Below are positions 7,137 to 43,318 of a stretch of DNA of 64,000 nt, one piece after another (position 1 is the stretch's first letter; each line of letters begins with the position of its first letter). Made by a program: the position numbers and the translations under genes. Source of the DNA: Planctomycetota bacterium (GTDB lineage Bacteria > Planctomycetota > SZUA-567 > H5-PLA8); assembly GCA_038227875.1 (NCBI GenBank), contig JBBRPR010000004.1, forward strand, positions 64,001-128,000, in the 5' to 3' direction. The notes beneath the pieces were generated by a model. It saw only the letters and a program-made list of their open reading frames with translations. It did no database searches and was not told where the DNA came from.

Positions 7137-9518
7137 ATGCGCTGCACGCTCCCCTTATTCGCACTGAGCCTGGCGATTGCCACTGGGCTGGCCGCAGCCG
7201 AGGGGCCTCTTACCCTCGTCGCCGATAAAGACTACCCGCCGCTGATTTATCTCGACCGCGACGTTCCCAAGGGCATGTTCGTTGACCTGACCCGCGCGTT
7301 GTCAAAAAAGATGGGCCGGGAAATTCGAATCGAATTAATGGCCTGGGACCAGGCTCAGAAAGAAACCGTCGATGGCCATGCCGATATCGTCGGGCCCATG
7401 GCCCATTCCAAACAGCGCGACGAGCTCTTCGATTTCTCGCAGTCGTGCCTGACGTGCGAATACTCCCTGTTTGTGCGCGACAATGAAATGTCCATTCGCA
7501 GCGTCGACGATCTGGCCGGCGTGCAGGTGGGTGTGACGACCGGTGGTTATCCCCGCCAGCTGCTGGCTGAAAAGTCCGGGGTCGAGCTTGTCCTGGTGGA
7601 GAACTACGGTGAAGGCATCGAACTGCTGCGGCAGGGCAAGATCCGCGTGCTCGCCGCCGATCGCTGGGTCGGTGCGTATTACATCCAGGAGCGCGGAGTT
7701 CAGGGCATTTCGATTCTCGACAAGCCCATGGCCGTGCGCGAGCTGGCCTACGCCGTCAAAAAGGGCAACACGGCGCTGCTCAACAAGCTGAACCGCGGCC
7801 TGAGCGAACTTCGCGCCGAAGGCGCCACCGATGCCATCGCCGGAAACTGGGAGCCGAAGAAGGTTGTGATCCTCACCCAGGAAAACATGCGGCGATCGCT
7901 GCTGCTGGGGGGATGCGTCCTGGCTGCGCTGCTGATCGCGGCCTTGTCGATCTGGATCCACCTGCTGCGGCGCGAAGTCCGGCAGCGGCGGCGCGCCGAA
8001 GCGGAGCTCGCCGGTTACCGCGGCCAGCTGGAAGACCTCGTGCGCCAGCGCACCGACGCGCTCGAAAAGGAAATCACGGAACGCAAACGGATCGAAGAAG
8101 CGCTGCGGCTGGCCAAGGACGGCGCGGACGCGGCCAGCAATGCCAAGAGCGCGTTTCTAGCCAGCATGTCGCACGAGATTCGCACGCCGCTCAACGCCAT
8201 TCTCGGCTACGCGCATCTCCTCAAGCGCGACATCGAGCTCTCGAAGAAGCACACGCAGGCGCTGGCCTCGATTTCCAGCAGCGGCGAACACCTGCTCGAT
8301 CTGCTCAGCGACATCCTGGCCATGTCCAGCATCGAAGCCGGCCGCACCACGCTGGACGAAGATGTCTTCGATCTCCACGAACTGCTGCGCACGCTGGAAA
8401 GCATGTTCAGTCTGCGCGTGCGCGAGAAGGGCCTGGTCTTCTCGGTGGAAATGGAGCCCGGGCTGCCGCGCCATGTCAGCGCCGATCAGCGCAAGTTGCG
8501 GCAGATCCTGTTCAACCTGCTCTCGAATGCCGTCCGTTTTTCTGATCGTGGAACGGTCACGTTGCGCGTGCGTGCGCGGGATGGCGTGCTTGAATTCGAC
8601 GTCGAAGACTCCGGACCGGGCATGTCGCCGGCCGAACAAGCGGCGCTGTTCAGGCCGTTCTCGCAGACCGAATCCGGACGCCGTAAATACGGTGGTGCGG
8701 GGTTGGGTCTGGCGATCAGCCGGGGGTTCGTTGAGTTAATGGGCGGACACATCGGGGTGCGCAGCGAGCCGGGCAAGGGGAGTTGTTTCCAGTTCTCCGT
8801 CCGCGCCCGGCGCGTGGAAAAGGAGCCATCTCTGCGAGAGCCGGATCAGATCGTCCGCCTCCGGTCCACGTTGAAACCGCCGCGCGTGCTGGTAGTGGAA
8901 GACCATCCCGAAAGCCGGAAACTTCTGATCGAGCTGCAACGCTCCGCCGGTTTTGATGTACGCGGCGCAGGCGATGGCCGGGAGGCCATCCGCATCTGGG
9001 ACGAATGGCGGCCGCATTTCATCTGGATGGATATGAATCTGCCAGTCCTGGACGGTTACCAGTCGACGCGCGAAATTCTCGCCAAGGACGCGACGAAGCA
9101 GACGGTGATCGTCGCGCTGACCGCCAGCGTTTTCGAAGAAGACCGCGCGCGTATTCTCGCCAGCGGCTGCGCCGACTTCATGACCAAGCCCTTCAGCGAG
9201 CAGGCCATCTTCGCGTGCCTGGAGAAACATCTGCACGTCGAATACGAACGGGAAGCGACGCCGCCATCCGGCAACGAATCGCTGGAGACCATCGCCGCAA
9301 AAATGGAGGCCTTGCCCAAAGAACTTTTCGACCGCATCCGACGCCACACGCGAATGCTCGACGCCGCCGCGCTGACGGATCTGGCCGACAACCTTGCCGC
9401 TGAGCACCCGGTCGTTTCGCAATTTCTAAAACACAGCGCGGAGCAACTGGACTTCGCCGCGTTGGAAGCGGTAATCAGCAGCCACGAGCAGCGCGCGTCA
9501 GATTCTTTTCAGCCTTAA
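7137..9518 (+). CDS. hybrid sensor histidine kinase with periplasmic solute-binding (family 3) input domain and receiver
   Basis: signal peptide, DYPP SBP-like domain, TM, MSHEIRTPLN, NLLSNA, DSGPG, GAGLGL, receiver with WMDMNLP and KP. Confidence 0.93.
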   Translation: MRCTLPLFALSLAIATGLAAAEGPLTLVADKDYPPLIYLDRDVPKGMFVDLTRALSKKMGREIRIELMAWDQAQKETVDGHADIVGPMAHSKQRDELFDFSQSCLTCEYSLFVRDNEMSIRSVDDLAGVQVGVTTGGYPRQLLAEKSGVELVLVENYGEGIELLRQGKIRVLAADRWVGAYYIQERGVQGISILDKPMAVRELAYAVKKGNTALLNKLNRGLSELRAEGATDAIAGNWEPKKVVILTQENMRRSLLLGGCVLAALLIAALSIWIHLLRREVRQRRRAEAELAGYRGQLEDLVRQRTDALEKEITERKRIEEALRLAKDGADAASNAKSAFLASMSHEIRTPLNAILGYAHLLKRDIELSKKHTQALASISSSGEHLLDLLSDILAMSSIEAGRTTLDEDVFDLHELLRTLESMFSLRVREKGLVFSVEMEPGLPRHVSADQRKLRQILFNLLSNAVRFSDRGTVTLRVRARDGVLEFDVEDSGPGMSPAEQAALFRPFSQTESGRRKYGGAGLGLAISRGFVELMGGHIGVRSEPGKGSCFQFSVRARRVEKEPSLREPDQIVRLRSTLKPPRVLVVEDHPESRKLLIELQRSAGFDVRGAGDGREAIRIWDEWRPHFIWMDMNLPVLDGYQSTREILAKDATKQTVIVALTASVFEEDRARILASGCADFMTKPFSEQAIFACLEKHLHVEYEREATPPSGNESLETIAAKMEALPKELFDRIRRHTRMLDAAALTDLADNLAAEHPVVSQFLKHSAEQLDFAALEAVISSHEQRASDSFQP

Positions 9519-9745
9519 ACGCTCGGCGTACGACGGCATATTTGCTGAGTATAGCGACTCGTGATTATCGGACCCGCTGAGATCGGAAAAATTCGCACGG
9601 CCAATGCGGCAGATTTTTCTGTCTCGGCGGTAATTTGACGATAAACTTTTAATTTCGATCATGCACCTTGCCATTCATGTCGCCCACCGGAATAAACCTC
9701 TGCACGCGCGCAATTGTATCAATGACACTTTGGAGACATTCCGCC

Positions 9746-12700: not shown

Positions 12701-14728
12701 ACGCGGTCGAACTGGACCATCACCCAGAATCGCATCACCACCGTTCAAGGCACGTCCGCCGGCGCGTTCTCCGCCAGCGGTCCGTCGGGCCTGCAGCTCT
12801 CCAACCTGAACGGCCTGACCTGCAGCTACAATTTCATCAGCGGCACGCCCAACAGCGGCATTCTGGCGGATGCTCTCGTCAGCAGCGCGATCACGGGAAA
12901 TCGCGTCCTCAACGTTCCGCAGGCCGGCATCCAGTTAAGCGGCACGTCCAACACCGTGAACGTCGCCTTCAACGAGATCAGCAACGCGAACATCAATCAG
13001 AGCACCGCCGACATGGGCGGCATCCGCCTGAACGCGCAGACGTTCACCGGAGCCGTCACCGTGCAGAACAACATCGTCGCCGGTTCGGTCAACGCCGTCG
13101 CCATCGCCGACGCGGGTAACAACGTCTCCAACGGTTTCACGACTGTCCGCAACAACAACCTCTCCGCCAATACGCGCGGCGTCTACCGCGCCGCCGGCGG
13201 CACTGGCACGCTGAACGCGCAATCCAATTGGTGGGGCAGCCCGCAGGGCCCTGTTGACCCGTCGAATCCCTCCGGCCAGGGCGTTGCCGTCAGCCCCGGC
13301 GTCACGTTCAGTCCGTTCCTGATCGACGGCACCGACACCGCGCCGCTGGATCCGACGACCTTCACCAGCCTCCAGAACAGCGTCGGCTTCCAGCCCAACA
13401 CCGGCCTCAGCGGCTCGGCGCAGCGCCTGGTCTTCACCACGCAGCCTGTTGGCAGCCTCGCCGGTTCGCCGTTGACCACCCAGCCGGTCGTGCAGGTGCA
13501 GGACGTCAACGGTAACGTCGCCACCAGCTTTACTGGGTTCATCGCCGTCTTCCTCGCCACAAATCCTTCGGGAGCCACGTTGACCGGCACGACGGTGCTC
13601 ACCGTTACCTCCGGCACCGCCACATTCACGAACTTGAATCTCGATCAGCCCGGCACCGGCTACCAGCTGCTGGCGATGTCCAGCGGCAATCTTGCCGCGT
13701 CGCTCAGCGCCACGTTTAACGTGCAAGCCGTCTTCAATCCCCTCCCGACCCTCACCAGCCTCTCGCCCAACAGCACCACCGCCGGCAGCCAGCCGCTGGC
13801 CCTGACCGTGACCGGCACGAACTTCATGTCCGCCTCAAAGGTACTCTTCGGAGGCCAGCCGCGCCCCACGATTTATTTGAGCTCCACGCAGCTGATCGCC
13901 GTGCTGCCCGACACCGACCTGGCCACCGCCGGCACGTTCACCATTGCTGTGAATTCCCCTGCACCCGGCGGCGGCACGACTGCGACGCTGGCATTCACTG
14001 TGAATCCTGTGACGGTACCCAACGCGCCGCCGCTGATGATCAGCCCCGCCAGCGCGACGCCCAATCCCGCCGCGCCCGGCCAGCTGGTGACGCTCAGCGC
14101 CGCCGCGGTTGATCCGGAAAATCAGTCGATGACCTACGCCTGGAATTTCGGCGACGGCGTCGCTGCCGGGGGTTCAACAGTCACCCACACCTTTACGGCG
14201 CCCGGCATCTACACCGTGAAAGTGATCGTCACCGATTCCGCCGGCGGCACGACCAATAGCCTCGTAACCGTAACGGTGGCTGCTGCTGCCACGGCGCCCA
14301 ACGAGACGATGACGCTGAAGTCCGCGAAGTTCAAGACCGTCACGCTCGCGCCGGCCAAAGGCACCGCGCAGGTCGCCGGCTCGTTCATCATGCCCACCGG
14401 AGTCACCACGCTTGCCGGCTCCGCGACGATCCTGATCAACGGCAAAACGCAGACATTCACCGTCGGAGCGACGGGCAAAGCCAAGGTCGGCAAGACGACA
14501 CTGACGATCAAGGGCAAACTGAAGAAAGGCGTGTTGAGCTCGTCGAGCGTCACGTTCGCGTTCAAGGATTTCGGCGACTACAGCACAGTGCTGATCAACG
14601 GAGGCCGCCCCGCGGGGACCTCCGGTGCGTCACTGATCGATGTCCAGCTGACCTACGCCGGCAAGACCTACGAAGGCACGCTCCAAGTCACCGTCACCGT
14701 GGGTAAAACGGGCAGCGCTGCGAAATAA
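9746..14728 (+). CDS. large secreted protein: repeated right-handed beta-helix modules, Ig/IPT-like and PKD domains, basic C-terminal domain
   Basis: signal peptide MPAALLRPFVVLFVLTALPLWA; repeated IQRAID.A..GD.V.V..GT; NWWGS; LTSLSP (IPT); WNFGDG (PKD); start re-picked within ORF 9668. Confidence 0.85.
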   Translation: MPAALLRPFVVLFVLTALPLWAADYYVDIAIGSNAFDGVSPTVGGGHGPKLTVNAAIGIATGGDTIHIAAGTYVEQVSLTTNLTLLGAGSGSTTLKLPAAPTTNVLGTDYAVVFAGASGANVTLQSLTIQGPGPNGGPALYGIFAGNTTHLIVTDCIVRDITDNPFGGVQHGNAIQVGRNALAQAATATITNVQVINYQKTGIIVDGPGSNASIINCQITGVGPTGAIAQNGIQISRTATATISGTTVTGNYYTNGVASCDVLLFQNGAVSIDTSTFTGSNVAVDVTQSSATGTVGLTGCTLGTSLSGNDEGLATDQAGAAVTVTGSTFTNNSIQNIDITDTAGKGITFSGGNTITGGASGISVSGSPVLSLGDTSFNGQSGNVITLAAGALATKTLDATGISVNGAAVSGLTTTQLLALEDRISHGVDTLGEGLVRVKAAQLFVTQASGSIQRAIDLASAGDSVFVGPGTFNENVTVNKLLTLQGSGAGSDPTTNTVVSNGGNVITVTAGGTDSTHQTTLRALYITGGAYGVVVNSTLGFLTLDTITATKLGQYGVFVGPNAILNAVTLLNCNLSANNTNLQAEQAGLWIDGAIDGLTITNGHFDSNTYGLYTRQLPVPANPLRPLTNVLITNTTFSTNFSKGIYAEKLDHATLTNIVVDGSGYSRPQSAAPDPLAFFVPPAGIDINLKYSTYTSIVLNNATVTNCGANNPTQASAVAIKGRDDPSNYNTNPALLNGVQIVGGTFQTPPYAARPAFSFGNNATNIVFSGGVNVTGTGVGVSSYINSGGTIDLGNTSLANTLAQYIQSLTTATITASGVNFNVSDDFAIEDKILHAVDAPGLGVVRWKSGNIFVTVNSFSAPTTTTPSLQRAVDAALSGDTVHVQAGTYGAQSVTFSAKAVTLSGPNAGVDPNVGSRGAEAIVNGASLFTLSNGSSAAVTIDGLTFDQVTGSTGVITASGSADSVTVRCNRFLSPAPAAVNLSGATRSNWTITQNRITTVQGTSAGAFSASGPSGLQLSNLNGLTCSYNFISGTPNSGILADALVSSAITGNRVLNVPQAGIQLSGTSNTVNVAFNEISNANINQSTADMGGIRLNAQTFTGAVTVQNNIVAGSVNAVAIADAGNNVSNGFTTVRNNNLSANTRGVYRAAGGTGTLNAQSNWWGSPQGPVDPSNPSGQGVAVSPGVTFSPFLIDGTDTAPLDPTTFTSLQNSVGFQPNTGLSGSAQRLVFTTQPVGSLAGSPLTTQPVVQVQDVNGNVATSFTGFIAVFLATNPSGATLTGTTVLTVTSGTATFTNLNLDQPGTGYQLLAMSSGNLAASLSATFNVQAVFNPLPTLTSLSPNSTTAGSQPLALTVTGTNFMSASKVLFGGQPRPTIYLSSTQLIAVLPDTDLATAGTFTIAVNSPAPGGGTTATLAFTVNPVTVPNAPPLMISPASATPNPAAPGQLVTLSAAAVDPENQSMTYAWNFGDGVAAGGSTVTHTFTAPGIYTVKVIVTDSAGGTTNSLVTVTVAAAATAPNETMTLKSAKFKTVTLAPAKGTAQVAGSFIMPTGVTTLAGSATILINGKTQTFTVGATGKAKVGKTTLTIKGKLKKGVLSSSSVTFAFKDFGDYSTVLINGGRPAGTSGASLIDVQLTYAGKTYEGTLQVTVTVGKTGSAAK

Positions 14729-14748
14729 AGACGACGACACACTGTGAA

Positions 14749-14764
14749 TGTTCCACGTGGAACG
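14749..14764. promoter_or_regulatory. parS centromere-like site
   Basis: TGTTCCACGTGGAACG matches the widespread parS palindrome GTT(T/C)CACGTG(A/G)AAC; inside a hairpin at 14731-14781. Confidence 0.8.
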
Positions 14765-14861
14765 TTCGCAGTGTGCGTCGTGGATTCGCAAAACCGTGAT
14801 GGAAAATTTTCCACCTCTCGAATGTGTACCGCTCCGAATGTCGTGGTCAGCACGCTGCTGC

Positions 14862-18629
<3,768 letters not shown>

Positions 18630-18883: not shown

Positions 18884-19942
18884 TTAGCGGGAATTCTTGG
18901 CCTTGAAGACGGTCTTGGCAACGAGGTGACCATCGACTTCGGCGACCGTCAGGTAGACATTGTCGCCAGCCTTCAGTTCCGGAAGATCTTTGACGTCTTT
19001 GACGACGACATCGACTTCTTTGTCGTTGAGTCCCATCTTCTTGAACGCGATGGATAGCTTGAGCACGATCGAATCGGTGCCGGCTTTCACGACGGAACCG
19101 TTCATGGTGCCGCTGTAGCCTTTCAATTCCGTGGGCAAGGTGGCGGGCGTTGCGGCCACCGCAGGTGCGGCGTCTTTGTCGTCGCCGAACGCCTGGCTCT
19201 GCCCCATCGTCAAGACCGAGCGCGAACCGTTGAAATCCACGCTGACACTGCCGGCCAGCACGCTCACTGCCATGATCATTGCAGCACGCTTCATCGTCGT
19301 TTCTCCTTGAGTGTTTTGTCCTTTGGGTTGAAGTTCAACGGAGAACTGCGTGCCCAGGACAGTGATCAGACCGACTTCCGTACTCACACGAAATGCGTGT
19401 TCCGCATCTGGTGCCTTTTGAATCTGAAAGCTCGCCTTGCCTGATTTCAGTTCCACGCTGCGGGAATGCAGAATGCTGGAACTCGACGATGCCAGATCCA
19501 TCATCGAGCCGTCGGGAAAGCGGATCGTGGCCGCGTTGCCGGCGTCGCAGGCCACGACTGAACTGTCGCTGATCGAGCCATCCCGCTTCTCATTCACCAG
19601 CGCCGAGCCGGACACCAGCTCAAATCCGCCGTGCGGTTTCACGGCCATGTTCGCCAGATAGAAGTAGGTCGCGCCGGCGCAGAAAAGCAGCACCGCCGCC
19701 GCCGACCAGGCCAGATACCGCCGCGCCGGCAACGGCGTGACGCGGGGCGGAGCAGAGCGGGGGAGTTCCGGCGCCGCTGCGCTGACTTTCAGCGCTTCGA
19801 CCAGCGTCGCCGTGCCCACGAACTCGTCGTAGAGGCGTTCGCGGTTGGCCGGTTCGGCCAGCAGGCGTTCGAGTTCCTTCAACTCGTCGGCGGTGATGGA
19901 TTCGTCGCGCCAGGCCAGCAGCAGTTCGTCGAGGGATTTCAT
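18884..19942 (-). CDS. FecR-family anti-sigma factor with small beta-rich C-terminal domain
   Basis: N-terminal anti-sigma helices, TM, F.DGS, FRVST..G.ITVLGT.FSV; start MKSLDELL overlaps the sigma stop (ATGA). Confidence 0.88.
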   Translation of the reverse strand: MKSLDELLLAWRDESITADELKELERLLAEPANRERLYDEFVGTATLVEALKVSAAAPELPRSAPPRVTPLPARRYLAWSAAAVLLFCAGATYFYLANMAVKPHGGFELVSGSALVNEKRDGSISDSSVVACDAGNAATIRFPDGSMMDLASSSSSILHSRSVELKSGKASFQIQKAPDAEHAFRVSTEVGLITVLGTQFSVELQPKGQNTQGETTMKRAAMIMAVSVLAGSVSVDFNGSRSVLTMGQSQAFGDDKDAAPAVAATPATLPTELKGYSGTMNGSVVKAGTDSIVLKLSIAFKKMGLNDKEVDVVVKDVKDLPELKAGDNVYLTVAEVDGHLVAKTVFKAKNSR

Positions 19943-20472
19943 ACGGTTCGATTCTCCCCCTGGATCCGGCGGGCCACACACTCGCGCAGGCCTTTGCGCA
20001 CGCGGCTGAGCAGCATCAGCACGGCTCCGTACGTCTGGCCCGACTGGCCGGCGATGACCGTCAACTGCACGCCCCGCTCGTAAACTTCCACCAGAAGCTG
20101 GCGCGATTTTTCGGGAAGGGCGCGCACGCATTCCAGCAGCGCGTTGCGGCGCGCCGTCCAGACGTTGTGCGAACCGGCCTGTTCATCAAACGCCTGCTCA
20201 ACGAGATCCAGCATGGAACTGTCGGGGATCACGCGGCTGGAGCGTTTCTCGCGCCAGTAATGGAGCACGAGATTGCGCGCCGTACCGCGGCACCAGGCGG
20301 CGAGGTCCTCGATCGCCACGCCGGTGCGGGAAGCTTCGGATAGTCGCAGCCAGACTTCCTGGAGAATGTCTTCGGCGGCATCCGGATCGCGGATCAATCC
20401 GGAGATGAAGGCCATCAGCACGTGGCGTTGAGCCAGGAACTGTGCGCCGAGGTTTTCAAGCTTTTCGGTCAT
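19939..20472 (-). CDS. ECF sigma factor
   Basis: AEDILQEVWL, AWCRGTARN, LSRVRKGLRECV; coupled to the FecR-like gene. Confidence 0.92.
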   Translation of the reverse strand: MTEKLENLGAQFLAQRHVLMAFISGLIRDPDAAEDILQEVWLRLSEASRTGVAIEDLAAWCRGTARNLVLHYWREKRSSRVIPDSSMLDLVEQAFDEQAGSHNVWTARRNALLECVRALPEKSRQLLVEVYERGVQLTVIAGQSGQTYGAVLMLLSRVRKGLRECVARRIQGENRTV

Positions 20473-33952: not shown

Positions 33953-34810
33953 TTAGCGGTTGAGGTTGGCAAAGGCGGCTTCGACGACTTCGCGGGCGGA
34001 CTTTAAAGGGGCGAGGAGGTCGCCCTCGCCGATCGATTCAAAAGCGATGCCGCCGGTGTAGCCGGCATCGCGGTAGGATTTCAGCAGGCGCGGAAGGTCG
34101 TCGCCGAAGCCGGCGAGTTTCCCGCCAACTGGCGCACCCTTGATCTTGAGGTGCGATTGCGTGGCCTTCGGCGCGAGCTTGGCGGCACTGACGTAGACTT
34201 TTTCTTTGATCTCGCGGGGCGCGTCGGCGTTCCAGAATTCGCTGGCGGCCCAGTTGCTCGGATCGGGACACGCGGTGAGGCGCTTGCTGCCGAGCGTGTT
34301 GATCAAGTTCAAAATGTCGTCGGCTTCGACGAAGATCGAGTTGTGATTCTCGATCGCCATGTTGACGCCGGCGCGTTCAGCGTACGGGATACATTCGATG
34401 ATGCCTTCGCGTGTCAGCTGCTCGAGCTTTTCGCGCGGGGCCTTGTCGTTGTAGTAGCCGGTGAGCATGCGGATGTTGGGCACGCCGAGAGAGCCTGCGA
34501 TGCCGAGCCATTCTTTAATGTAAGCGATGTTGGCCAGGCGCCACTCTTCGTTGGCGACGAAGGCGAAGTCGTTGTACGTGGAGAGCGAGAGCACCTTCAC
34601 GCCGACCTTGCTGGCGTGGCGCATGACTTTTTCGAGATGCGCGGGTTGGCTGGAGCCGAGATCGCCGGCGGGATTGCCCGCGGCGCCGGCCATGATTTCG
34701 ATGCCGGAAAATCCCATCGCGGCGGTGGCGTCGAGGCAATCGAAGATTGTGAAAGCCGTATCGTTTTTGAAGCGGTCGCGGAAGCTCCAGGAATGCATGG
34801 CGGCGAACAT
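33953..34810 (-). CDS. sugar phosphate isomerase/epimerase (xylose isomerase-like TIM barrel)
   Basis: GFSGIE, AIENH, D.SN, HLK, GYTGGIAFE. Confidence 0.88.
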   Translation of the reverse strand: MFAAMHSWSFRDRFKNDTAFTIFDCLDATAAMGFSGIEIMAGAAGNPAGDLGSSQPAHLEKVMRHASKVGVKVLSLSTYNDFAFVANEEWRLANIAYIKEWLGIAGSLGVPNIRMLTGYYNDKAPREKLEQLTREGIIECIPYAERAGVNMAIENHNSIFVEADDILNLINTLGSKRLTACPDPSNWAASEFWNADAPREIKEKVYVSAAKLAPKATQSHLKIKGAPVGGKLAGFGDDLPRLLKSYRDAGYTGGIAFESIGEGDLLAPLKSAREVVEAAFANLNR

Positions 34811-34947
34811 GGCGCGGGTGGCTCCTTGCGGGACTAGGTTTACCAGAATTTAACAGTCGTCAATCAAAGGACACATGAAAGATACTCCGTCCTACAGTGG
34901 GATTCTGCGGGAAAAACGTACCTTCTATTGATATAAGTTACCAAAAA

Positions 34948-35016
34948 GTCGCCTTAGCGCGCGTTGCGCGCTAAGGCGACAGGGGTTAGTTCGCTCGCAA
35001 ACAGCCGCGAGCGAAC
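34948..35016. repeat. two adjacent strong palindromes in a divergent intergenic region
   Basis: GTCGCCTTAGCGCGC-gtt-GCGCGCTAAGGCGAC and GTTCGCTCGC-N8-GCGAGCGAAC. Confidence 0.7.
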
Positions 35017-35155
35017 CAACGGGGTCAGGGGCCAAGGGTCAGAATAGAGTGTGCGCAGGGAAGGGGTGGGCGGGGTTTTGCTTTTGGGTGGAGTTAAAAA
35101 GAAGTGAAGTTTGGCGAGAAGCTTCGCTCTCGCCTTGAGAATTTTGGGGAGGTAC

Positions 35156-36010
35156 GTGGTGGGCTTCTATGCTTCTCCGTCGGAGCTGGATCGGAAGTGT
35201 TTCTCGCTCGATAGCACGGGGCGTTCGCGGATGGCGCAGGTGCCGGTGCGATTTCGGCGGGATCACGGGTGGCGGTCGTGGCAGTTCATGTACACGCTGC
35301 GCGGGGAAGGTGTGGTGGACATTGAAGGCTCGCCGTTTCACGCGCAGGAGCACACCGTCACGTTGATGCCGCCGGACAAGAGCCACGGGTATCAGCCGGC
35401 GAAAGGATGCAAGCTCTGGGAATACCAATGGATCGAATTCAGTGGCGCGATGTCGGCCGATTTGCTCAACATGTTCGGACTGCTCGGGCGCTCGCACATC
35501 CACGGTTGCCGCGAGGCGTGGCCGGCGGTGGAGGACGTCGTCACGCGGCTGGAGACCGGCGGCAACGCGGCGCTGCATGAAGCGATGGCGCTTTTTCTGC
35601 GCGTGCTGGCGATCGTGGAATGGCGCGTGCGCCCCGAACGGACCCGCACACCGCTGGTGCAGCAGGTCGACCTGGCGGCCAAACGCTTTATCGCCGATCA
35701 CCTCGAGGCGGAGATCGATCTCGACGCGGTCGCGCAGGCGGTGCGGACCAGCCCGCATCACCTCATCCGCGTCTTCAAGCGCAACAATAATCTGACGCCG
35801 ATGGCATATCTGCGACAACTGCGCGCGGAGCGGGCGAAAGTGCTACTATCGCGGGGCGACTTGAGCATCAAGCAGGTCGGGCAGCGCGTGGGGTATCCGG
35901 TGCTGCAGCATTTTTCGCGCATGTTCCGAGCGGAGACGGGTAAGTCGCCGCGCGCGTGGCGTGGCGCTGGCGCGCAGGGGTCAGGGGTGGGGGCAGGCAC
36001 GGTGGAGTAA
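35156..36010 (+). CDS. AraC-family transcriptional regulator
   Basis: GGAGG before GTG; YTLRGEG; SPHHLIRVFK, VGY..QHFSRMFR..G.SP.AWR. Confidence 0.9.
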   Translation: MVGFYASPSELDRKCFSLDSTGRSRMAQVPVRFRRDHGWRSWQFMYTLRGEGVVDIEGSPFHAQEHTVTLMPPDKSHGYQPAKGCKLWEYQWIEFSGAMSADLLNMFGLLGRSHIHGCREAWPAVEDVVTRLETGGNAALHEAMALFLRVLAIVEWRVRPERTRTPLVQQVDLAAKRFIADHLEAEIDLDAVAQAVRTSPHHLIRVFKRNNNLTPMAYLRQLRAERAKVLLSRGDLSIKQVGQRVGYPVLQHFSRMFRAETGKSPRAWRGAGAQGSGVGAGTVE

Positions 36011-36081
36011 GCGGATTTTTTGCGCGGGCGGGCTAGAAGGCAGAAGCAGTCGGCAGGATCGCAGGCGTTGGGAATCGATTC

Positions 36082-36555
36082 ATGGCGGAAGCTGAAAAGT
36101 CAGAGCGGCTACAGTTTTCATTGCTGACAATGTTTGTCGTCGCTCTTCTTGCCGGCGGCGTTCTGGGAATTTCAGTGGCCATATATAAAGTGATTCAGGA
36201 TGACGGCAACGCTGCACAAACACGTCATGCGACCGATAGCGCTTTTCGAGTTGTCGAGCGCTTCATGGAGGCGCATCCAGGCCAGTGGCCTCAATCCTGG
36301 CGCGAACTGGAAACCGTAAAGGATCCAAGCACCGGAAAACCAATGGATTTGTATACTATTCAAAGACGTGTCAAAATTGACTTCACGCTCGGACTTGAAG
36401 ATCTGGAAAAGCAGTCGGAAAGCACTTTCACTGCAATTCAAGCCATTGGTCCCACGTATTCTGATTCGGAGAGCGCCAACCAAGCCAACCAGATCATTGA
36501 GTTGGCGAAGAAGTACGTCAAACTTCAGGCTCATGCGCCAGTATCGCAAAAATAG
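36082..36555 (+). CDS. membrane-anchored hypothetical protein with N-terminal RLQFSL motif
   Basis: RLQFSLLTMFVVALLAGGVLG; lower-GC codon usage than neighbours. Confidence 0.75.
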   Translation: MAEAEKSERLQFSLLTMFVVALLAGGVLGISVAIYKVIQDDGNAAQTRHATDSAFRVVERFMEAHPGQWPQSWRELETVKDPSTGKPMDLYTIQRRVKIDFTLGLEDLEKQSESTFTAIQAIGPTYSDSESANQANQIIELAKKYVKLQAHAPVSQK

Positions 36556-36688
36556 CGTTTGGACGCGCCGGGGTCGTTCCGAAGTCTGGTTTGGGACGCT
36601 AATTACCCGAAATGTGTGCAACGAATGCCGGGGTGCGGGGTCTAAAGTCGCAAATCGTCTGACGGGATTACTAAAAGGGAGCACCATC

Positions 36689-39600
36689 ATGTCAAATTCG
36701 CGAATACCTCTGGTTCTGTTCGTGGCGCTGCTGGCGGGGGCGGCGCGGGGGAACGAAGTCGGGTACGTGGAGGATTTTGCGCTTTCGGCCAACCGCGGGG
36801 ATACGCTCAAGCAGCTCATTCCCGGATCTGAAGATTACTACTATTACACCTGCCTGACGTACCAGCAGACCGGCGCGTTCGACAAGGTCGACGAGCTGCT
36901 CAAGCTGTGGATTGAACGCCACGGGCGCACGGCGCGCGTCGAAGAGATCGTCAACCGCAACGCGCTGCTGGCGTACGAAAAGGACCCGAAGAAGTCGCTC
37001 GACTTTCTGCGCTGGCGGCTGGGCTTGAACTTCGATCACCGCAAGGAAATCATCGACCAGAAGCCCAACCAACCCACGCGCCTGGATCCCGCCGTGATCG
37101 CGAGCGAGACGATGACCCGCGACGCGCTCAATCATTACGGCAACCTGCAGGGCATCGAAGATTCGGCGCTGGAACTGCTTTCGCAGCAGAAGCTGACCGG
37201 CGAACAGCGCCGCGAACTGCTCGGCCGATTGCATCGCCCGGACCTGACCAACATGGTCCAGCTGGTGATGGAAGATTTGCGCTACAAGTACAGCTCGGGT
37301 TTCGGTTCGATGGAAATCCACAGACAGATGACGCTCGCGCAATTGGACGAACTGGTGAAGGCCATGCCGGAGCTGGCCAACCAGGTGAATTTCATCGGCG
37401 CCTACCTGACCAAGCTGCAGCCGACGCCGGACGTCGACGCGCAGTTGAACGCGAAGGAGCGGCTGGCGTGGTTCGACCGCGTCTGGGCGTTTGTGGCGAA
37501 GTTGCAGCCGGCGCACAATTCTCTGAAGGCGCACGTCCTCTTCCACCGCCTGGAATTCGACCGCACGCAGGGCGTGTACGACAAGGACCGCTTCATGGAA
37601 TACCTGAAGCTTCCGCGCCCCACCGCTTACATGCGGCCGGAGTACCTGCAGCGCACGTACCAGATCAATGGCGGCCAGGCGCAGGCGAATTTGAATCAGG
37701 ATTTCTCGGCGTCGACGCTGATGGTCGTGGTCAACACCGACGACGAATTGGTCCGCGATTACCTGCTCCACTTCTTTCAGAAGGAAGAGGACTTCGCGCC
37801 GTACCTGGTCTACGTTCGCGACGATTATATCAAGGATATCTTCGCGGAAGCCAAGATCGTCAACGGCATCGGCGACATGGAGAAGTGGTATTCGCTGCTG
37901 AACAACCCCACGCGCTACCAGGCGCTGAAAGACCGCGTCGACATCGATTTCGCGCCGGAGAACAAGCACTTCTTCACGGCCAACGACGCGGTGAGCCTCG
38001 ACGCCGACGTCAAGAACGTGAAGACGCTGATCGTGAAAGTGTTTGAAATCAACGCGCTCAATTATTACCGCGAGAAGAACCGCGAAGTCGACACGTCCAT
38101 TAATCTCGACGGACTGGTCGCCAACGACGAGAAGACCTTTACCTACGACGAAGCGCCGCTCCATCGCGTGCGCCGCCATTTCGATTTTCCGACGCTGAAG
38201 AAGCCCGGCGTGTACGTCGTAGAATTCATCGGCAACGGCACCAGCAGCCGCGCGCTGATCCACAAGGGGAAGCTGCGATTCATCGAGCACACCGGCACGG
38301 CCGGGCACGTCTTCAGCGTGATGGATGAAGAGAACAAGCCGGTGAAGGACGCCAGCATCTGGATGGCCGGGCGGGATTACACGGCCGACAAGGACGGCGA
38401 GATCCACATTCCCTTCAGCACCGCGCCGGGACAGCAGACGATCGTGCTGCATCAGGGCGAGTTTGCGAGCTTCGACACGTTCGACCACAAGGGCGAAGTC
38501 TACACTCTGAACGCCGGGTTCCACGTCGACCGCGAAGCGCTGCTCAAGCGGCAGAAAGCCAGCGTGCTGGTGCGGCCGGAGCTGACGCTGACGGGCAATC
38601 TCGCCACGGTGGGATTGCTGGAAGAAGTGACGTTGCAGATCCAGACGACCGATCGCGATGGCGTGGGGACGACCAAGGAAATTCCCGACTTCAAGCTTTT
38701 TGACGACAAGGAATCGGTCTACGAATTCTCGACGCCCGACAACATCATCCAGATCGGCTTCACACTGCGGGCACGGGTGAAGAGCCTGACGCTGCAGAAG
38801 AAGATCGACCTGGCCACGTCGCGTACGTTCGGCCTCAACCGCATTGACCTGTCGGAGAAGATCGAAGCACTGCATCTCAATCGCACGGCTGACGGGTACT
38901 TCCTGCAGCTGCTGGGCAAGACCGGCGAGACCAAGGCCGACCGGCCCGTGTCGCTGAACTTCAAGCACGTCGATTTCCGCGAACCAGCGCACGCGGCGCT
39001 GCAGACCGATGCCGACGGCAAGATCGTGCTGGGCCAGCTGCCCGACATTATGCTCGTGAGCGCCACGCTGCAGGACGGGCAGGCGTACTCGTGGATCCTG
39101 CCGCGCGACAATCACAATTATCTTTCGACCGTGCACGGCAAGCCCGCGCAGGCGATCCATCTGCCGTACATGGGCAGCGAAAAAGCGCCGACGCGCGCGG
39201 AGTTCTCGCTGCTGGAGCTGCGCGGTTCGCAGGCCGACGGCACGGGTACGTTTGTGCGCGATTGCTTCGAGAATCTGGCGATCGCCGACGGCTTCGTGGA
39301 GATCAAGGGCCTGACGGCCGGCGACTACTCGCTGCTGCTGAAGAAAGCCAACGAGCTCGTGTTGATCCGCATCACTGATGGCGAAATCCGCGACGGCTAC
39401 GCGCTGGGCGACGTCCGCACGCTGGAAATCAACAACGCCGAACCGCTCCAGATCACCAGTGTCGACGCCAACGCCGACACGCTCAAGGTTCAGCTCAAGA
39501 ACGTGACGAAGTACACGCGCGTGCATGTCGTCGCCGACCGCTTTCTGCCGGCGTATTCGATCTTCACGCAGCTCTCGACGCCCGGCCTGCAGGAACCGGA

Positions 39601-42600
39601 GAGCGTGGTCTGGACGAAGATGATTTCGCATTACCTGACCGGCCGCAACATTGGCGATGAGTACCGTTACATTCTGGAACGGCGCTACGCGCCGAAGTTC
39701 GCCGGCAACATGCTGGCGCGGCCGAACCTGCTGCTCAATCCGTTCACGCTGCGCACGACCGACACGGCGCAGGACGATCTGAACGGCCAGGGCAATTTCG
39801 GTTCGCGTTCCGGCGGCGGACGGCGAGCGATGATCACGCGCCACGGTGGAACCCGCGCCGACGAGACCGATTCGGCGCCGTGGGCGAATCTGGATTTCCT
39901 GCCCGAGCCGTCGACGCTGCTGGCCAATCTGGTGCCGGACAAGGACGGCGTGGTGAACATTTCGCGCAAGGACCTCGGCGCGCACCAGAACGTCCGCATC
40001 GTGGCCGTCGACACGCAGAACACGGTCGTGCGCGACGTCGCGCTGCAGGAAGTTGCGCTGAAGCCCAAGGACCTGCGCCTGGCGACGGGCCTGGACCCGG
40101 CCAAGCACTTCACCGAGCAGAAGGAAATCACGCTGCTCAACGCGGGGCAGTCGCTGGTGATGGACGACATCACCACGTCGAGCCTGGAGTCGTTCGACAC
40201 GCTGCGCAAGGTCTATGGACTCTACACGACGCTCAGCCGTGACCCGCGCCTGAGCGAGTTCGCGTTCATTCTGGAATGGCCGAAGCTGAAAGACGACGAG
40301 AAGCGCGCGGCGTATTCCAAGTACGCGTGCCATGAATTGAATTTCTTCATCTACAAGAAAGATCCGGACTTCTTCAAGGCGGCGCTGCTGCCGTACCTGA
40401 AGAACAAGAAAGACAAGACGTTCATGGACCACTACCTGATCGGCGACGACATGACGGCATACACGCAGCCGTGGAATTACGATCGCTTGAACACGGTCGA
40501 ACAGATCCTGCTCGCGCACCGCGTTCAGGCGGAGCTGAATCCGGCCGTGCGCCACGCGAAGGAAATTTACGATCTGATGCCGCCGGACATCGAGCGCTTC
40601 AATTTCCTCTTCAAGACGGCGCTGCAGGGGAATGCGCTTGAGACGGCTGATGGCGTCGGCTTCCGCGAAGCGACGGGGAAGATTGTCGACAACAACCGCA
40701 AGTTGAACGACGCCCGCGATCAATTGAGGGCGAGTAATGAGGAGGGCAAGGCGGATGCTGCGCCCGCCGCCAACGGATTTGCGCTTGGTGGCGCTGCCGG
40801 ACAGCCCAGCAACGGGCCTGCGTCGCCACCGCCCCCGGCCGTTGCCGCCGCGAGACCCGCCGCACCCGCGAAAACCGAGCAGTTGGCCAAAAAGCTGGCT
40901 GACCAACGTTCCGACAAGAATAAGAGCGGCGAATTTAAAGAGCGTGAAAAGTTGAAGGACGCCGCCAAGAAGCCGATGGCGCAGGCGGCTCAAAGAGCTG
41001 CGGAGGCGGACGACGCCAAGGCGGACAAGCAGCAATTGGAGGGCTTGGCCGTCGATCTCGAAAGCCGCGACCAGGCGCAGCAACAGATGCTCTACCGGAA
41101 GCTCGACAAGACCGAGGAGCTTGCTGAGAACAATTACTTCAAGCTGCCGATCGAACAGCAGCTCGCGTCACTGGTGACGGTCAACGCGTTCTGGAAGGAC
41201 TTCGCGGCCAACGCCAACAAGGGACCGTTCCTTTCGGGGAACCTGGCCGAAGCGTCGCGCAACTTCACGGAAATCATGTTCGCGATGTCGGTGCTGGACC
41301 TGCCTTTCGAAGCCGGCAAGCACGCTTCGGAATTCGCGGCGCAGAAGATGACGCTCAACGCCAAGAGCCCGATCGTGGCGTACCACAAGGAGATCAAGGA
41401 AAGTCCCGCGGCGGAGAAGACGCCGGTGCTGGTCAGCCAGAATTTCTACCGCGCCGACGACCGCTTCCGCTTCGAGAACAACGAACGCTTCGACAAGTAC
41501 GTCACCGACGAATTCCTGGTGCATGTCGTCTACGGCTGCCAGGTGGTGCTGACCAATCCGACGTCCTCACCGCAGAAACTGGATCTGCTGCTGCAGATCC
41601 CGCGCGGAGCGATGCCGGCGACCAACGGTTTTTACACCAAGGGGCCGTTCGTGCAGTTGGCGCCGTATTCGACGACGACGTTCGATTACCACTTCTACTT
41701 CCCGCTGCCGGGCGAGTTCACGCACTATCCCGTCCACGTTTCACGCAACGGCAAGATGATCGCGTCGGCCGCGCCGGTGATTTTGAAGGCCGTCGCCAAG
41801 CTGACGAAGATCGACACCGAGTCGTGGGATTACATCTCGCAGAACGGCACGGACGAGCAGGTGATCACCTACCTGGATGCCAACAACATCCACCGCATCA
41901 ATCTCGATCGCATCGCCTGGCGCATGGGCAACGCGGCGATGTTCAAGAAGGTCACCGAGCTGCTGACCCGCCGCCACGATTACAACAATACGCTCTGGTC
42001 GTACGCGATCGTGCACAACGACGTCCCGGCGATCCGTGAATTCCTGGCGCACGCCGATGGCTTCGTGGCGCAGACGGGGCTGTGGCTGGAAAGTCCGCTG
42101 CTGGCGATCGATCCGGTGGCGCGCAATTTCTATCAGCACCTGGAGTACAGCCCGCTGGTCAACGCGCGCGCACACCGGCTGGGCAAAGAGAACAAGATCC
42201 TCAACGACCGATTCTACGAGCAGTACGAACGGATCCTGCATGTCCTGAAGTACAAGCCGGAACTCAGCGACGCCGACCGGCTCTCGGTCTCCTGCTACAT
42301 GCTGCTGCAGGACCGCGTCGCCGACGGACTGGCGATGTTCGCGAAGGTCAATCCGGAAAAGATCGCGACGAAGATCCAGTACGATTACGTAAAGGCGTTC
42401 GGCGACTTCTATTCCGACGAACACAAGACGGCGCGCGAAGTGGCGGCGACGTACAAGGACTATCCGATCGACCGCTGGAAGAACCGCTTCGCCGATATCG
42501 TCGCGCAGCTGGACGAAGCGGCGGGCAAGAACGCCGTGGCCATCGACAAGGAAGACCGGACGCAGGCGATGGGCCAGCTGGCGGCCGGCGAGCCGAGCTT

Positions 42601-43165
42601 TGAGTTCAAGATCGACGGCAAGAAGGTGCACGTGAACTTCCAGAACCTGCAGGGTGCCGAGGTCAATTTCTACCCGATGGACATCGAGCTGCTCTTCTCG
42701 AGCAACCCGTTTGTGCATGACGTCAACGATCAGTTCTCGTTCGTGAAGCCGGTGAAGACTACGACGCTGAAGTTCCCGGAGAAGACGAAGGAGTTCGAAT
42801 TCGACGTGCCGCCAGAGTTCCTCAATTCGAACGTGATGATCGAGCTGAATGCCGCCGGCACGCGGAAGTCGCAGGCGTATTACGCCAACGCGATGACCGT
42901 GCAGACGATTGAGAACTACGGGCAGGTCAAGGTCGTCAACCCAAAGACCGAGGCGCCGATGCCGAAGGTGTACGTGAAGGTTTACAGCAAGATGAAGGAC
43001 GGCGAGGTGCGCTTCTACAAGGACGGCTACACGGACCTGCGCGGCCGCTTCGATTACGCGTCGCTGAGTACCAACGAACTGGACAACGTAGCGCGGTTTG
43101 CGGTGCTGGTGATGAGCGACACCGACGGCGCGATCGTGCGCGAGGCGAATCCGCCGAAGCGGTAA
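36689..43165 (+). CDS. very large secreted hypothetical protein (2158 aa), macroglobulin-like domain pattern
   Basis: signal peptide MSNSRIPLVLFVALLAGAARG; strong codon bias; repeated TD.DG motifs; YFP.PG.F..YP; C-terminal VYVKVY..FYKDGYTDLRGRFDY. Confidence 0.85.
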   Translation: MSNSRIPLVLFVALLAGAARGNEVGYVEDFALSANRGDTLKQLIPGSEDYYYYTCLTYQQTGAFDKVDELLKLWIERHGRTARVEEIVNRNALLAYEKDPKKSLDFLRWRLGLNFDHRKEIIDQKPNQPTRLDPAVIASETMTRDALNHYGNLQGIEDSALELLSQQKLTGEQRRELLGRLHRPDLTNMVQLVMEDLRYKYSSGFGSMEIHRQMTLAQLDELVKAMPELANQVNFIGAYLTKLQPTPDVDAQLNAKERLAWFDRVWAFVAKLQPAHNSLKAHVLFHRLEFDRTQGVYDKDRFMEYLKLPRPTAYMRPEYLQRTYQINGGQAQANLNQDFSASTLMVVVNTDDELVRDYLLHFFQKEEDFAPYLVYVRDDYIKDIFAEAKIVNGIGDMEKWYSLLNNPTRYQALKDRVDIDFAPENKHFFTANDAVSLDADVKNVKTLIVKVFEINALNYYREKNREVDTSINLDGLVANDEKTFTYDEAPLHRVRRHFDFPTLKKPGVYVVEFIGNGTSSRALIHKGKLRFIEHTGTAGHVFSVMDEENKPVKDASIWMAGRDYTADKDGEIHIPFSTAPGQQTIVLHQGEFASFDTFDHKGEVYTLNAGFHVDREALLKRQKASVLVRPELTLTGNLATVGLLEEVTLQIQTTDRDGVGTTKEIPDFKLFDDKESVYEFSTPDNIIQIGFTLRARVKSLTLQKKIDLATSRTFGLNRIDLSEKIEALHLNRTADGYFLQLLGKTGETKADRPVSLNFKHVDFREPAHAALQTDADGKIVLGQLPDIMLVSATLQDGQAYSWILPRDNHNYLSTVHGKPAQAIHLPYMGSEKAPTRAEFSLLELRGSQADGTGTFVRDCFENLAIADGFVEIKGLTAGDYSLLLKKANELVLIRITDGEIRDGYALGDVRTLEINNAEPLQITSVDANADTLKVQLKNVTKYTRVHVVADRFLPAYSIFTQLSTPGLQEPESVVWTKMISHYLTGRNIGDEYRYILERRYAPKFAGNMLARPNLLLNPFTLRTTDTAQDDLNGQGNFGSRSGGGRRAMITRHGGTRADETDSAPWANLDFLPEPSTLLANLVPDKDGVVNISRKDLGAHQNVRIVAVDTQNTVVRDVALQEVALKPKDLRLATGLDPAKHFTEQKEITLLNAGQSLVMDDITTSSLESFDTLRKVYGLYTTLSRDPRLSEFAFILEWPKLKDDEKRAAYSKYACHELNFFIYKKDPDFFKAALLPYLKNKKDKTFMDHYLIGDDMTAYTQPWNYDRLNTVEQILLAHRVQAELNPAVRHAKEIYDLMPPDIERFNFLFKTALQGNALETADGVGFREATGKIVDNNRKLNDARDQLRASNEEGKADAAPAANGFALGGAAGQPSNGPASPPPPAVAAARPAAPAKTEQLAKKLADQRSDKNKSGEFKEREKLKDAAKKPMAQAAQRAAEADDAKADKQQLEGLAVDLESRDQAQQQMLYRKLDKTEELAENNYFKLPIEQQLASLVTVNAFWKDFAANANKGPFLSGNLAEASRNFTEIMFAMSVLDLPFEAGKHASEFAAQKMTLNAKSPIVAYHKEIKESPAAEKTPVLVSQNFYRADDRFRFENNERFDKYVTDEFLVHVVYGCQVVLTNPTSSPQKLDLLLQIPRGAMPATNGFYTKGPFVQLAPYSTTTFDYHFYFPLPGEFTHYPVHVSRNGKMIASAAPVILKAVAKLTKIDTESWDYISQNGTDEQVITYLDANNIHRINLDRIAWRMGNAAMFKKVTELLTRRHDYNNTLWSYAIVHNDVPAIREFLAHADGFVAQTGLWLESPLLAIDPVARNFYQHLEYSPLVNARAHRLGKENKILNDRFYEQYERILHVLKYKPELSDADRLSVSCYMLLQDRVADGLAMFAKVNPEKIATKIQYDYVKAFGDFYSDEHKTAREVAATYKDYPIDRWKNRFADIVAQLDEAAGKNAVAIDKEDRTQAMGQLAAGEPSFEFKIDGKKVHVNFQNLQGAEVNFYPMDIELLFSSNPFVHDVNDQFSFVKPVKTTTLKFPEKTKEFEFDVPPEFLNSNVMIELNAAGTRKSQAYYANAMTVQTIENYGQVKVVNPKTEAPMPKVYVKVYSKMKDGEVRFYKDGYTDLRGRFDYASLSTNELDNVARFAVLVMSDTDGAIVREANPPKR

Positions 43166-43175
43166 GCGACACCTT

Positions 43176-43311
43176 GTGCCACGGATGCGCAGACGCTCGA
43201 GCGTAGCGAAAGCGTCTGTTCATCCGTGCGGGACGCTTTGAAATGGCGGTACGTAACGCACGGATGAACGGCTGCTTTCGCTGCGCTCAAGCATCCGCGC
43301 ATCCGTGGCAC
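43176..43311. repeat. inverted doublet of a 54-bp REP-like hairpin between convergent genes
   Basis: GTGCCACGGATGCGC...GTTCATCCGTGC at 43176-43229 and inverted at 43258-43311. Confidence 0.85.
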
Positions 43312-43318
43312 CGGAAAA

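Follow-up and report, generated by a model that had tools for sequence, protein, structure and literature searches.

A lysine-rich, all-beta C-terminal domain common to more than one hundred putatively exported proteins of a Planctomycetota bacterium

The Planctomycetota possess a very large complement of exoproteins and, to our knowledge, how these proteins are delivered and retained is essentially unknown. Here we analyse a stretch of 64,000 nucleotides from a Planctomycetota bacterium (GTDB lineage Bacteria; Planctomycetota; SZUA-567; H5-PLA8), hereafter called the window, which spans positions 64,001 to 128,000 of the forward strand of contig JBBRPR010000004.1 (assembly GCA_038227875.1). 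The window is part of the contig that we label C4, in an assembly of 9.34 Mb and 176 contigs that is 88% complete. Two convergent genes of the window, gene A for a predicted exported beta-helix protein and gene B for a predicted exported metalloprotease-like protein, end in lysine (Lys)-rich C-terminal regions, referred to below as tail A and tail B. An initial annotation made from the DNA letters had claimed that these two unrelated exoproteins end in a similar Lys-rich domain of about 140–150 amino acids (aa), and had suggested for it a lineage-specific role in export or surface anchoring. We find that both tails belong to a large family, found almost always at the extreme C-terminus of proteins that are otherwise unrelated, usually preceded by a PKD domain, and opposite in charge to the passenger regions that it terminates. 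Judged by its sequences, the tail appears to belong to a new and uncatalogued family of C-terminal tag domains. We tentatively propose, with a probability of roughly 0.4, that the tail and the PKD domain together constitute a cassette for localisation at the cell surface, in which the tail would be retained non-covalently on an anionic polymer of the envelope.

The domain family and its relation to known folds

The pairwise similarity of tails A and B, taken alone, would be no better than chance: they are 21% identical, and direct BLASTP aligns them with an E value of 0.12 (26% identity over 87 columns, with 34% gaps). Searches of the genome at E<1e-3 led from tail A to 10 places and from tail B to 46, several of which were found by both. 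When the genome was split into 53,153 stop-to-stop open reading frames (ORFs) and hidden Markov model (HMM) searches were iterated from each tail separately, the two runs converged on 104 and 109 ORFs, with 103 in common and one domain per ORF. A leave-out profile built from 60 other copies recognized tail A with 53.8 bits (E 5.6e-14) and tail B with 122.8 bits (E 3e-35), and the scores still amounted to 41.5 bits (E 3.4e-10) for tail A and 87 bits (E 3.3e-24) for tail B once every row with 30% identity or more to the tail under test had also been dropped; the maximum reached by 1000 shuffles of both tails was 11.3 bits. The claim of the initial annotation that the two proteins end in a similar domain is thus borne out by significant profile scores. 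AlphaFold2, supplied with 62 paralogues as alignment, predicted confident models for tail B (predicted local distance difference test, pLDDT, 94.6; predicted template-modelling score, pTM, 0.87) and for tail A (pLDDT 91.3, pTM 0.82), and the structure prediction that had been proposed as a check yields an identical order of about 9–11 strands in both. Because the profiles converge, the left-out tails are recovered and the predicted strand order is common to both, the two tails are best regarded as homologous copies of one family of about 145 residues, predicted to form an all-beta, basic, cysteine-poor beta-sandwich.

Family-guided alignment of the two tails contains 29 identities and places the motifs that had been lined up in the initial annotation in identical register, its G..F, K-G, KK patch and G..Y corresponding to the conserved columns G47/G48, F53, K58-G59, K73/K76 and Y131. 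Three columns, D20, G26 and G59 (tail B numbering), are near-invariant, and conservation extends to the final strand, which has G147 and a basic end. The proposed order at the end of both genes, in which a PKD domain is succeeded by a linker and then by a basic, beta-rich domain, is seen in the ORF translations and in Pfam matches, and the interval 14300..15320 that had been singled out takes in both tails together with the 133-bp spacer between them. The two proteins do share the peptides ASATPNP and ATATPNP; these are simply the opening residues of the PKD domain found ahead of the tail in most members. The copies appear to be old and diverse, since clustering of 100 full-length copies at 70% identity gives 95 clusters and the mean column identity is 24%.

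No known family accounts for the domain in the searches that were made. Neither tail matches any family in Pfam or NCBIfam, and a scan of 62 aligned copies against the same collections gave no recurrent family, the best single match having an E value of 5.5e-4 and no family matching more than two members. The last 150 or so residues of 42 long relatives likewise match no Pfam family at E<=1e-8. A diverged PKD domain, considered as an identity for the tail, was ruled out by hhalign comparison with the PKD profile of the genome, which gave a probability of 0.2% where a split-family control gave 100%. The initial annotation had also considered a carbohydrate-binding or immunoglobulin (Ig) family, and none was found in Pfam, in NCBIfam or in this PKD profile comparison. 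Sequence searches of the PDB gave a best E value of 1.9. Foldseek returned nothing from the PDB at E<=1e-3: its top matches are archaellins with TM scores of 0.36–0.42, the best of them at E 3.2e-3 and TM 0.36. VIA-align gave best Z scores of 6.1 in a wide search and 6.3 in a second look, with none at 8 or above. Such resemblances are, on the models, probably those of a generic beta-sandwich. In the ESM Atlas the clusters nearest to the tail are named 'hypothetical protein', come mostly from Planctomycetota and have no common Pfam family, and the names given to relatives in their sources are 'PKD domain-containing protein', 'IPT/TIG domain-containing protein' or 'hypothetical protein'. A literature search turned up no paper on a domain of this kind in Planctomycetota.

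Position, charge, passengers and distribution

Within the genome the family comprises 110 matches at a domain E value below 1e-2, one per ORF, and in 103 of these no more than 14 residues separate the end of the domain from the stop codon. When the C-terminal 150-residue tails of the genome are grouped by relatedness, the family makes up the largest group (92 members), ahead of an AraC-type group with 60. By a home-made heuristic, 94 of the 106 ORFs with a complete 5' end begin with a signal-peptide-like segment and 12 have none. A PKD-like domain lies upstream of the tail in 84 of 109 family ORFs, at a median distance of 34.5 residues (interquartile range 12–58), and a PKD profile built from the two PKD domains of the window finds 105 ORFs genome-wide, 84 of which are members of the tail family. 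PKD domain, linker and tail therefore constitute a recurrent unit. The initial annotation had anticipated many hits, always C-terminal and on proteins with signal peptides, and to a large extent this is what the genome contains.

The tails and their passengers differ sharply in composition. In 96 proteins the tail domain has a median Lys content of 9.6%, a median net charge of +11 and a median isoelectric point (pI) of 10.16, with pI above 9 in 93 of them, whereas the passengers have medians of 1.9% Lys, a net charge of -17 and a pI of 4.73, with pI below 7 in all 96. For comparison, the median Lys content in the long ORFs of the genome is 3.6%. The contrast between Lys-poor passengers and a Lys-rich tail, described earlier for the two proteins of the window, thus extends to the family. 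The positive charge is conserved by position, Lys or arginine (Arg) occurring in at least 45% of copies at eleven columns, and Lys is the last residue in 61 of 100 copies. Cysteine is absent from 77 of the 96 copies. No tryptophan (Trp) of the surface type is conserved, and the conserved aromatic residues alternate within strands as core residues would.

The family extends well beyond this genome. Among 1.84 billion representative proteins, a profile scan found 2906 that match at E<=1e-3; 2301 of them remain at E<=1e-10 and 470 at E<=1e-30. Of the 150 best representative matches, 144 have the domain ending within 16 residues of the protein end. A homologue search in a word index with residues 1104–1255 of protein B returned 1856 candidates and none at E<=0.001, the index being too insensitive for this family, and a related-locus search with one copy as query found a single locus, in a metagenome-assembled genome of a Planctomycetota bacterium. 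The passengers of 42 long representatives are strikingly varied and include NHL and RCC1 propellers, glucose/sorbosone dehydrogenase (GSDH), beta-helix, LamG, cadherin, TIG, Calx-beta, PA14, DUF11 and Peptidase_C10 domains and PATR repeats. A PKD domain occurs in 27 of these 42 proteins, mostly just upstream of the tail.

The taxonomic range was assessed in two sets of genomes. In a sample of the order (20 genomes, including that of the window) the domain was found in 17, with 0–113 copies per genome, at least 41 in nine genomes and 1–21 in eight. Without the genome of the window it is present in 14 of 16 genomes of the same family, in both genomes of a second family and not in the single genome of a third (G017, 77% complete and unpublished). 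Other families of the class gave 0 of 21 genomes. In a phylum-wide sample of 301 genomes at least 80% complete, with 13 candidates scored per genome, the domain was detected in 29 at E<=1e-6, including 22 from eight other families, with 1–10 copies each. The family thus appears patchy within the Planctomycetota and greatly expanded in the lineage of the window genome, and the term 'lineage-specific' of the initial annotation is apt in so far as the domain is confined to certain lineages of these samples. Orthologues of the protease region of protein B were found in two tail-negative genomes (G017 and G010), and both frames run off their contigs.

Anchor, export signal or binding module

In the mechanism that we favour, an N-terminal signal peptide, predicted from the sequence, would carry the protein across the inner membrane, and the protein would then cross the outer membrane. 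The basic domain, with about eleven conserved Lys/Arg columns and a net charge of about +11, would bind an anionic envelope polymer non-covalently, candidates being lipopolysaccharide (LPS) and capsular or extracellular polysaccharide. The acidic passenger, with a pI of about 4.7, would stay displayed on the cell, with the PKD domain and the low-complexity linkers serving as a stalk. A localisation tag is suggested in that a single copy terminates each of more than 100 unrelated exported proteins, a pattern that binding or spacer modules do not usually show. Non-covalent retention is favoured because positive charge is kept column by column, because the passengers are uniformly acidic and because the single candidate machine tested does not follow the distribution of the domain; the lack of a co-occurring dedicated partner in that case fits binding to a generic envelope component. 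Both the retention role and the nature of the binding partner are inferred from charge, position and architecture.

Basic folded modules that anchor exoproteins non-covalently on anionic envelope polymers, often at the C-terminus, are known from Gram-positive bacteria as SLH domains and GW modules. Those modules occur in tandem, whereas the tail is present as a single copy and in a diderm phylum, and no sequence or fold match to them appeared in the searches made. Many-to-one C-terminal tags on exported proteins are also typical of the PEP-CTERM/exosortase, GlyGly-CTERM/rhombosortase, MYXO-CTERM and LPXTG/sortase systems, and these are often found on the same types of passenger, such as PKD-containing proteases and choice-of-anchor domains. 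Some passengers of the tail indeed come from families that elsewhere bear known anchors, namely choice-of-anchor Z in protein A, myxosortase- or rhombosortase-type M36 peptidases in protein B (weak matches) and PATR repeats. Those tags, however, consist of a motif of about 25–40 aa with a transmembrane helix and a basic tail, while the domain described here is predicted as a soluble beta domain of 145 aa without a hydrophobic helix. It also differs from autotransporters, being a predicted sandwich and not a 12-strand barrel.

Machinery for these systems was sought in the genome. Exosortase (PF09721), sortase (PF04203) and the autotransporter barrel (PF03797) gave no match, with positive controls for exosortase, for sortase (in three genomes) and for the barrel. 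PF18962 (the C-terminal domain, CTD, of the secretion system of type IX, T9SS), PF07589 (PEP-CTERM) and TIGR04189 (SprA) gave no match either, and these absences are weak in that the control genomes were silent too. Among the neighbours of 105 family genes (three genes on each side) there is no recurrent specific one; they belong to families that are large and common, among them kinases, AraC regulators and further secreted repeat proteins, and six adjacencies join two family genes. The genome does contain a complete canonical type II secretion system (T2SS) operon outside the window (contig C60, about 34000–44700), with GspE, GspF, pseudopilins, GspJ, GspK, a GspM-like protein and a GspD that has an N0 domain and three N domains. 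One report describes a T2SS as up-regulated during external fucoidan degradation in a marine strain (PMC11685898). Full-length orthologues of the GspD (55–64% identity) occur in exactly the nine of 41 related genomes that have at least 41 tail copies, and in none of the eight related genomes with 1–21 copies. In the phylum sample, GspD was found at E<=1e-40 in none of the 22 tail-positive genomes outside the family and in 45 tail-negative ones. The T2SS, as an obligatory partner of the tail, fails phylum-wide co-occurrence and was rejected; the match between GspD and the tail within the family may reflect the shared ancestry of a subclade. The search for a cognate translocon, proposed in the initial annotation, identified none, the canonical T2SS being the one candidate that was followed.

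An analogue of the T9SS CTD is a possible alternative and nearly as likely as a non-covalent anchor: the tail would then be a signal for export across the outer membrane that a dedicated translocon reads, and might be cleaved later. The type A CTD of the T9SS (PF18962/TIGR04183, e.g. RgpB) is likewise a folded beta-sandwich at the extreme C-terminus of Sec-exported proteins, is found on dozens to more than 100 unrelated cargo proteins per genome, comes after an Ig-like domain and a flexible linker, and has a conserved final strand. As reported for RgpB, its CTD runs from S664 to K736, has 7 strands, ends in Lys, as most of the tails do, follows an IgSF domain and carries its signal in the last two strands (PMC4804311). 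According to another report, the attachment of T9SS cargo to LPS depends on the CTD (PMC12860637). A dedicated translocon would account better than an anchor for the strict terminal position of a single copy and for the conserved basic final strand with G147, and would suit the unrelated passengers of more than 100 cargo candidates and a lineage-restricted distribution with large expansions. On the other hand, no partner emerged from the neighbours, which are common regulators and kinases, or from the co-occurrence of the T2SS, and an export signal gives the conserved positive charge no stated role. None of 62 copies matches PF18962 or TIGR04183 at E<=0.1, the tail has about 145 aa and 10–11 strands where the CTD has about 73 aa and 7 strands, and its hosts are Planctomycetota and not Bacteroidota. 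No T9SS CTD chain is among the matches listed by Foldseek or VIA-align, which leaves room for a common core. By sequence the tail thus does not appear to be a member of the T9SS CTD family, being twice its size, and at most it would work like one.

A bolder form of this alternative, which we consider somewhat doubtful, would make the cassette of PKD domain and basic sandwich the address label of an undiscovered planctomycetal system for secretion across and attachment to the outer membrane, with its own translocon and processing enzyme and more than 100 cargo proteins per genome. If this were true, the system would be a functional counterpart of the T9SS of Bacteroidota.

Several points weigh against the surface-anchor interpretation. 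Neither an extreme C-terminal position nor a conserved basic residue at the end is required of a purely non-covalent anchor, and such strictness is rather what is typical of signals that a machine reads. The position is, moreover, not absolute: 7 of the 110 copies are internal and are followed by a further 168–193 residues, although such copies are rare. The signal-peptide heuristic is crude, with at least 2 false positives among its 94 positives, and the localisation is read from sequence and charge. Since the fold is generic, structure offers no clue to function. The absence of T9SS and PEP-CTERM markers comes from an incomplete genome, with controls silent for three of four families. As for the export or anchoring role suggested in the initial annotation, all of its named sequence-level predictions have held, the role itself is deduced from position, copy number and charge, and no cognate translocon or processing enzyme was identified.

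Two further alternatives are less likely than either an anchor or an export signal. The tail might be a ligand-binding or adhesion module directed at the environment (anionic polysaccharide, DNA or mineral surfaces) with no role in sorting, which we regard as improbable. A beta-sandwich with conserved basic columns, the many adhesin-like passengers (cadherin, Calx-beta, PA14, DUF11) and a sediment-type sample origin, according to the labels of the best-matching sequencing run only, would agree with it. Binding modules, however, usually occur in tandem and at varied positions, whereas the tail is single, almost always terminal and found equally on proteases, dehydrogenases and propellers; nor does it match any carbohydrate-binding module or Ig family in Pfam or NCBIfam, and it lacks conserved surface-type Trp, its aromatic residues being patterned as those of a core. 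Least probable is a structural or folding element without address function (a stalk end, an oligomerization domain or an intramolecular chaperone), which would be in keeping with a well-folded predicted domain (pLDDT 91–95) and with the C-terminal pro-domains known on secreted proteases (the PPC domain, PF04151, is present on one relative), but leaves the many non-protease passengers and the conserved charge contrast unexplained and would not be expected of a spacer with such extreme copy number and a single terminal position.

The locus and the meaning of the domain

The features of the two genes are listed in Table 1. Gene A probably starts at the ATG at 9722, and the signal peptide behind it ends, by the heuristic, in ...LPLWA/AD. 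The protein matches Beta_helix, TIG_SUH and PKD_4 in Pfam, and its residues 1358–1445 match the choice-of-anchor Z repeat domain of NCBIfam, CoaZ_rpt_PGGG (NF058597). In the stop-to-stop ORF of gene A the family HMM covers residues 1552–1689. Tail A has a pI of 10.2 and a net charge of +13, and tail B, whose stop codon occupies 14862–14864, a pI of 10.7 and a net charge of +12. Protein B consists, in this order, of a heuristically predicted signal peptide ([24 protein letters not shown]), an HExxH protease-like region, a PKD domain, He_PIG, a second PKD domain, the linker and the tail; in NCBIfam it has weak matches to myxosortase- and rhombosortase-dependent M36 peptidases. The stop codons of the two genes meet at 14728/14862, and neither a terminator-like nor a promoter-like consensus was found in the spacer between them.

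Table 1. Features of the convergent genes A and B (positions in the window)
Feature	Position	Strand	Basis
Gene A, predicted exported beta-helix protein, 1686 aa	9668..14728	+	ORF, Pfam, NCBIfam, signal-peptide heuristic
PKD domain of A, residues 1464–1537, directly upstream of tail A	14057..14278	+	PF18911, E 9.2e-19
Tail A, Lys-rich, predicted all-beta C-terminal domain of ~140 aa, ends ...GKTGSAAK-stop	14303..14725	+	Family HMM, 61.3 bits
Spacer between the convergent stop codons, 133 bp	14729..14861	.	ORF coordinates
Gene B, predicted exported HExxH metalloprotease-like protein, 1255 aa	14862..18629	-	ORF, Pfam, NCBIfam
Tail B, Lys-rich, predicted all-beta C-terminal domain of 152 aa, ends ...AAGFVQK-stop	14865..15320	-	Family HMM, 115.3 bits
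Gly-Thr/Ser low-complexity linker of B, ~130 aa, residues 972–1103	15321..15716	-	Translation
Second PKD domain of B, residues 887–971, upstream of linker and tail	15717..15971	-	PF18911, E 1.7e-34, two stretches

Most of the linker of protein B is encoded by an 18-bp tandem repeat at 15346–15686 (Tandem Repeats Finder: 18.9 copies, 89% matches). Linker repeats of this type could differ in length among strains. A low-complexity run of at least 40 residues within the 200 residues upstream of the tail is found in 5 of the 109 family ORFs, presumably including gene B.

The surroundings of the two genes were judged by eye. Just upstream of gene A, on the same strand (7137–9518, +), lies a gene for a hybrid sensor of 793 aa in which a periplasmic solute-binding-like domain seems to be combined with a histidine kinase and a receiver, and which has an HPt-like end. 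On the strand of gene B, and directly upstream of it, are overlapping ORFs (18884–20472, -): the one at 19939..20472 resembles an extracytoplasmic function (ECF) sigma factor, and the one at 18884..20131 an anti-sigma-like membrane protein. Such a pair, if these labels are correct, would suggest control of gene B of the envelope-stress type.

Further observations concern the genome at large. In the seven ORFs with an internal copy of the domain (C20_110099, C51_7485, C124_5940, C28_41170, C10_82272, C3_241958 and C87_15113), the extensions are basic and beta-rich, fall into two small groups and have no detectable relation to the tail (hhalign probability 1.9%); they may represent a second kind of terminal module. 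On contig C100 (8796–10449, -) two neighbouring ORFs, C100_9097 and C100_8796, each match a part of the tail profile and appear to be one family gene that has been split, likely by a frameshift or an assembly error. The genome has nine secretin genes, which is many for one genome, and contig C18 carries a tandem pair of unusually long secretins (102367–105842; 956 and 1019 aa). None of the 11 sequencing runs listed as containing the sequence is of RNA.

A tag present on about 110 proteins of one genome and in about 2900 public clusters would label the surface and secreted proteome of Planctomycetota, and its recognition would improve the annotation of thousands of proteins now named 'PKD domain-containing' or 'hypothetical'. 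The contrast in charge between tail and passenger is a mechanistic clue that can be tested directly. The tail would also offer a handle on the machinery of export and anchoring in these bacteria, and is a candidate module for surface display.

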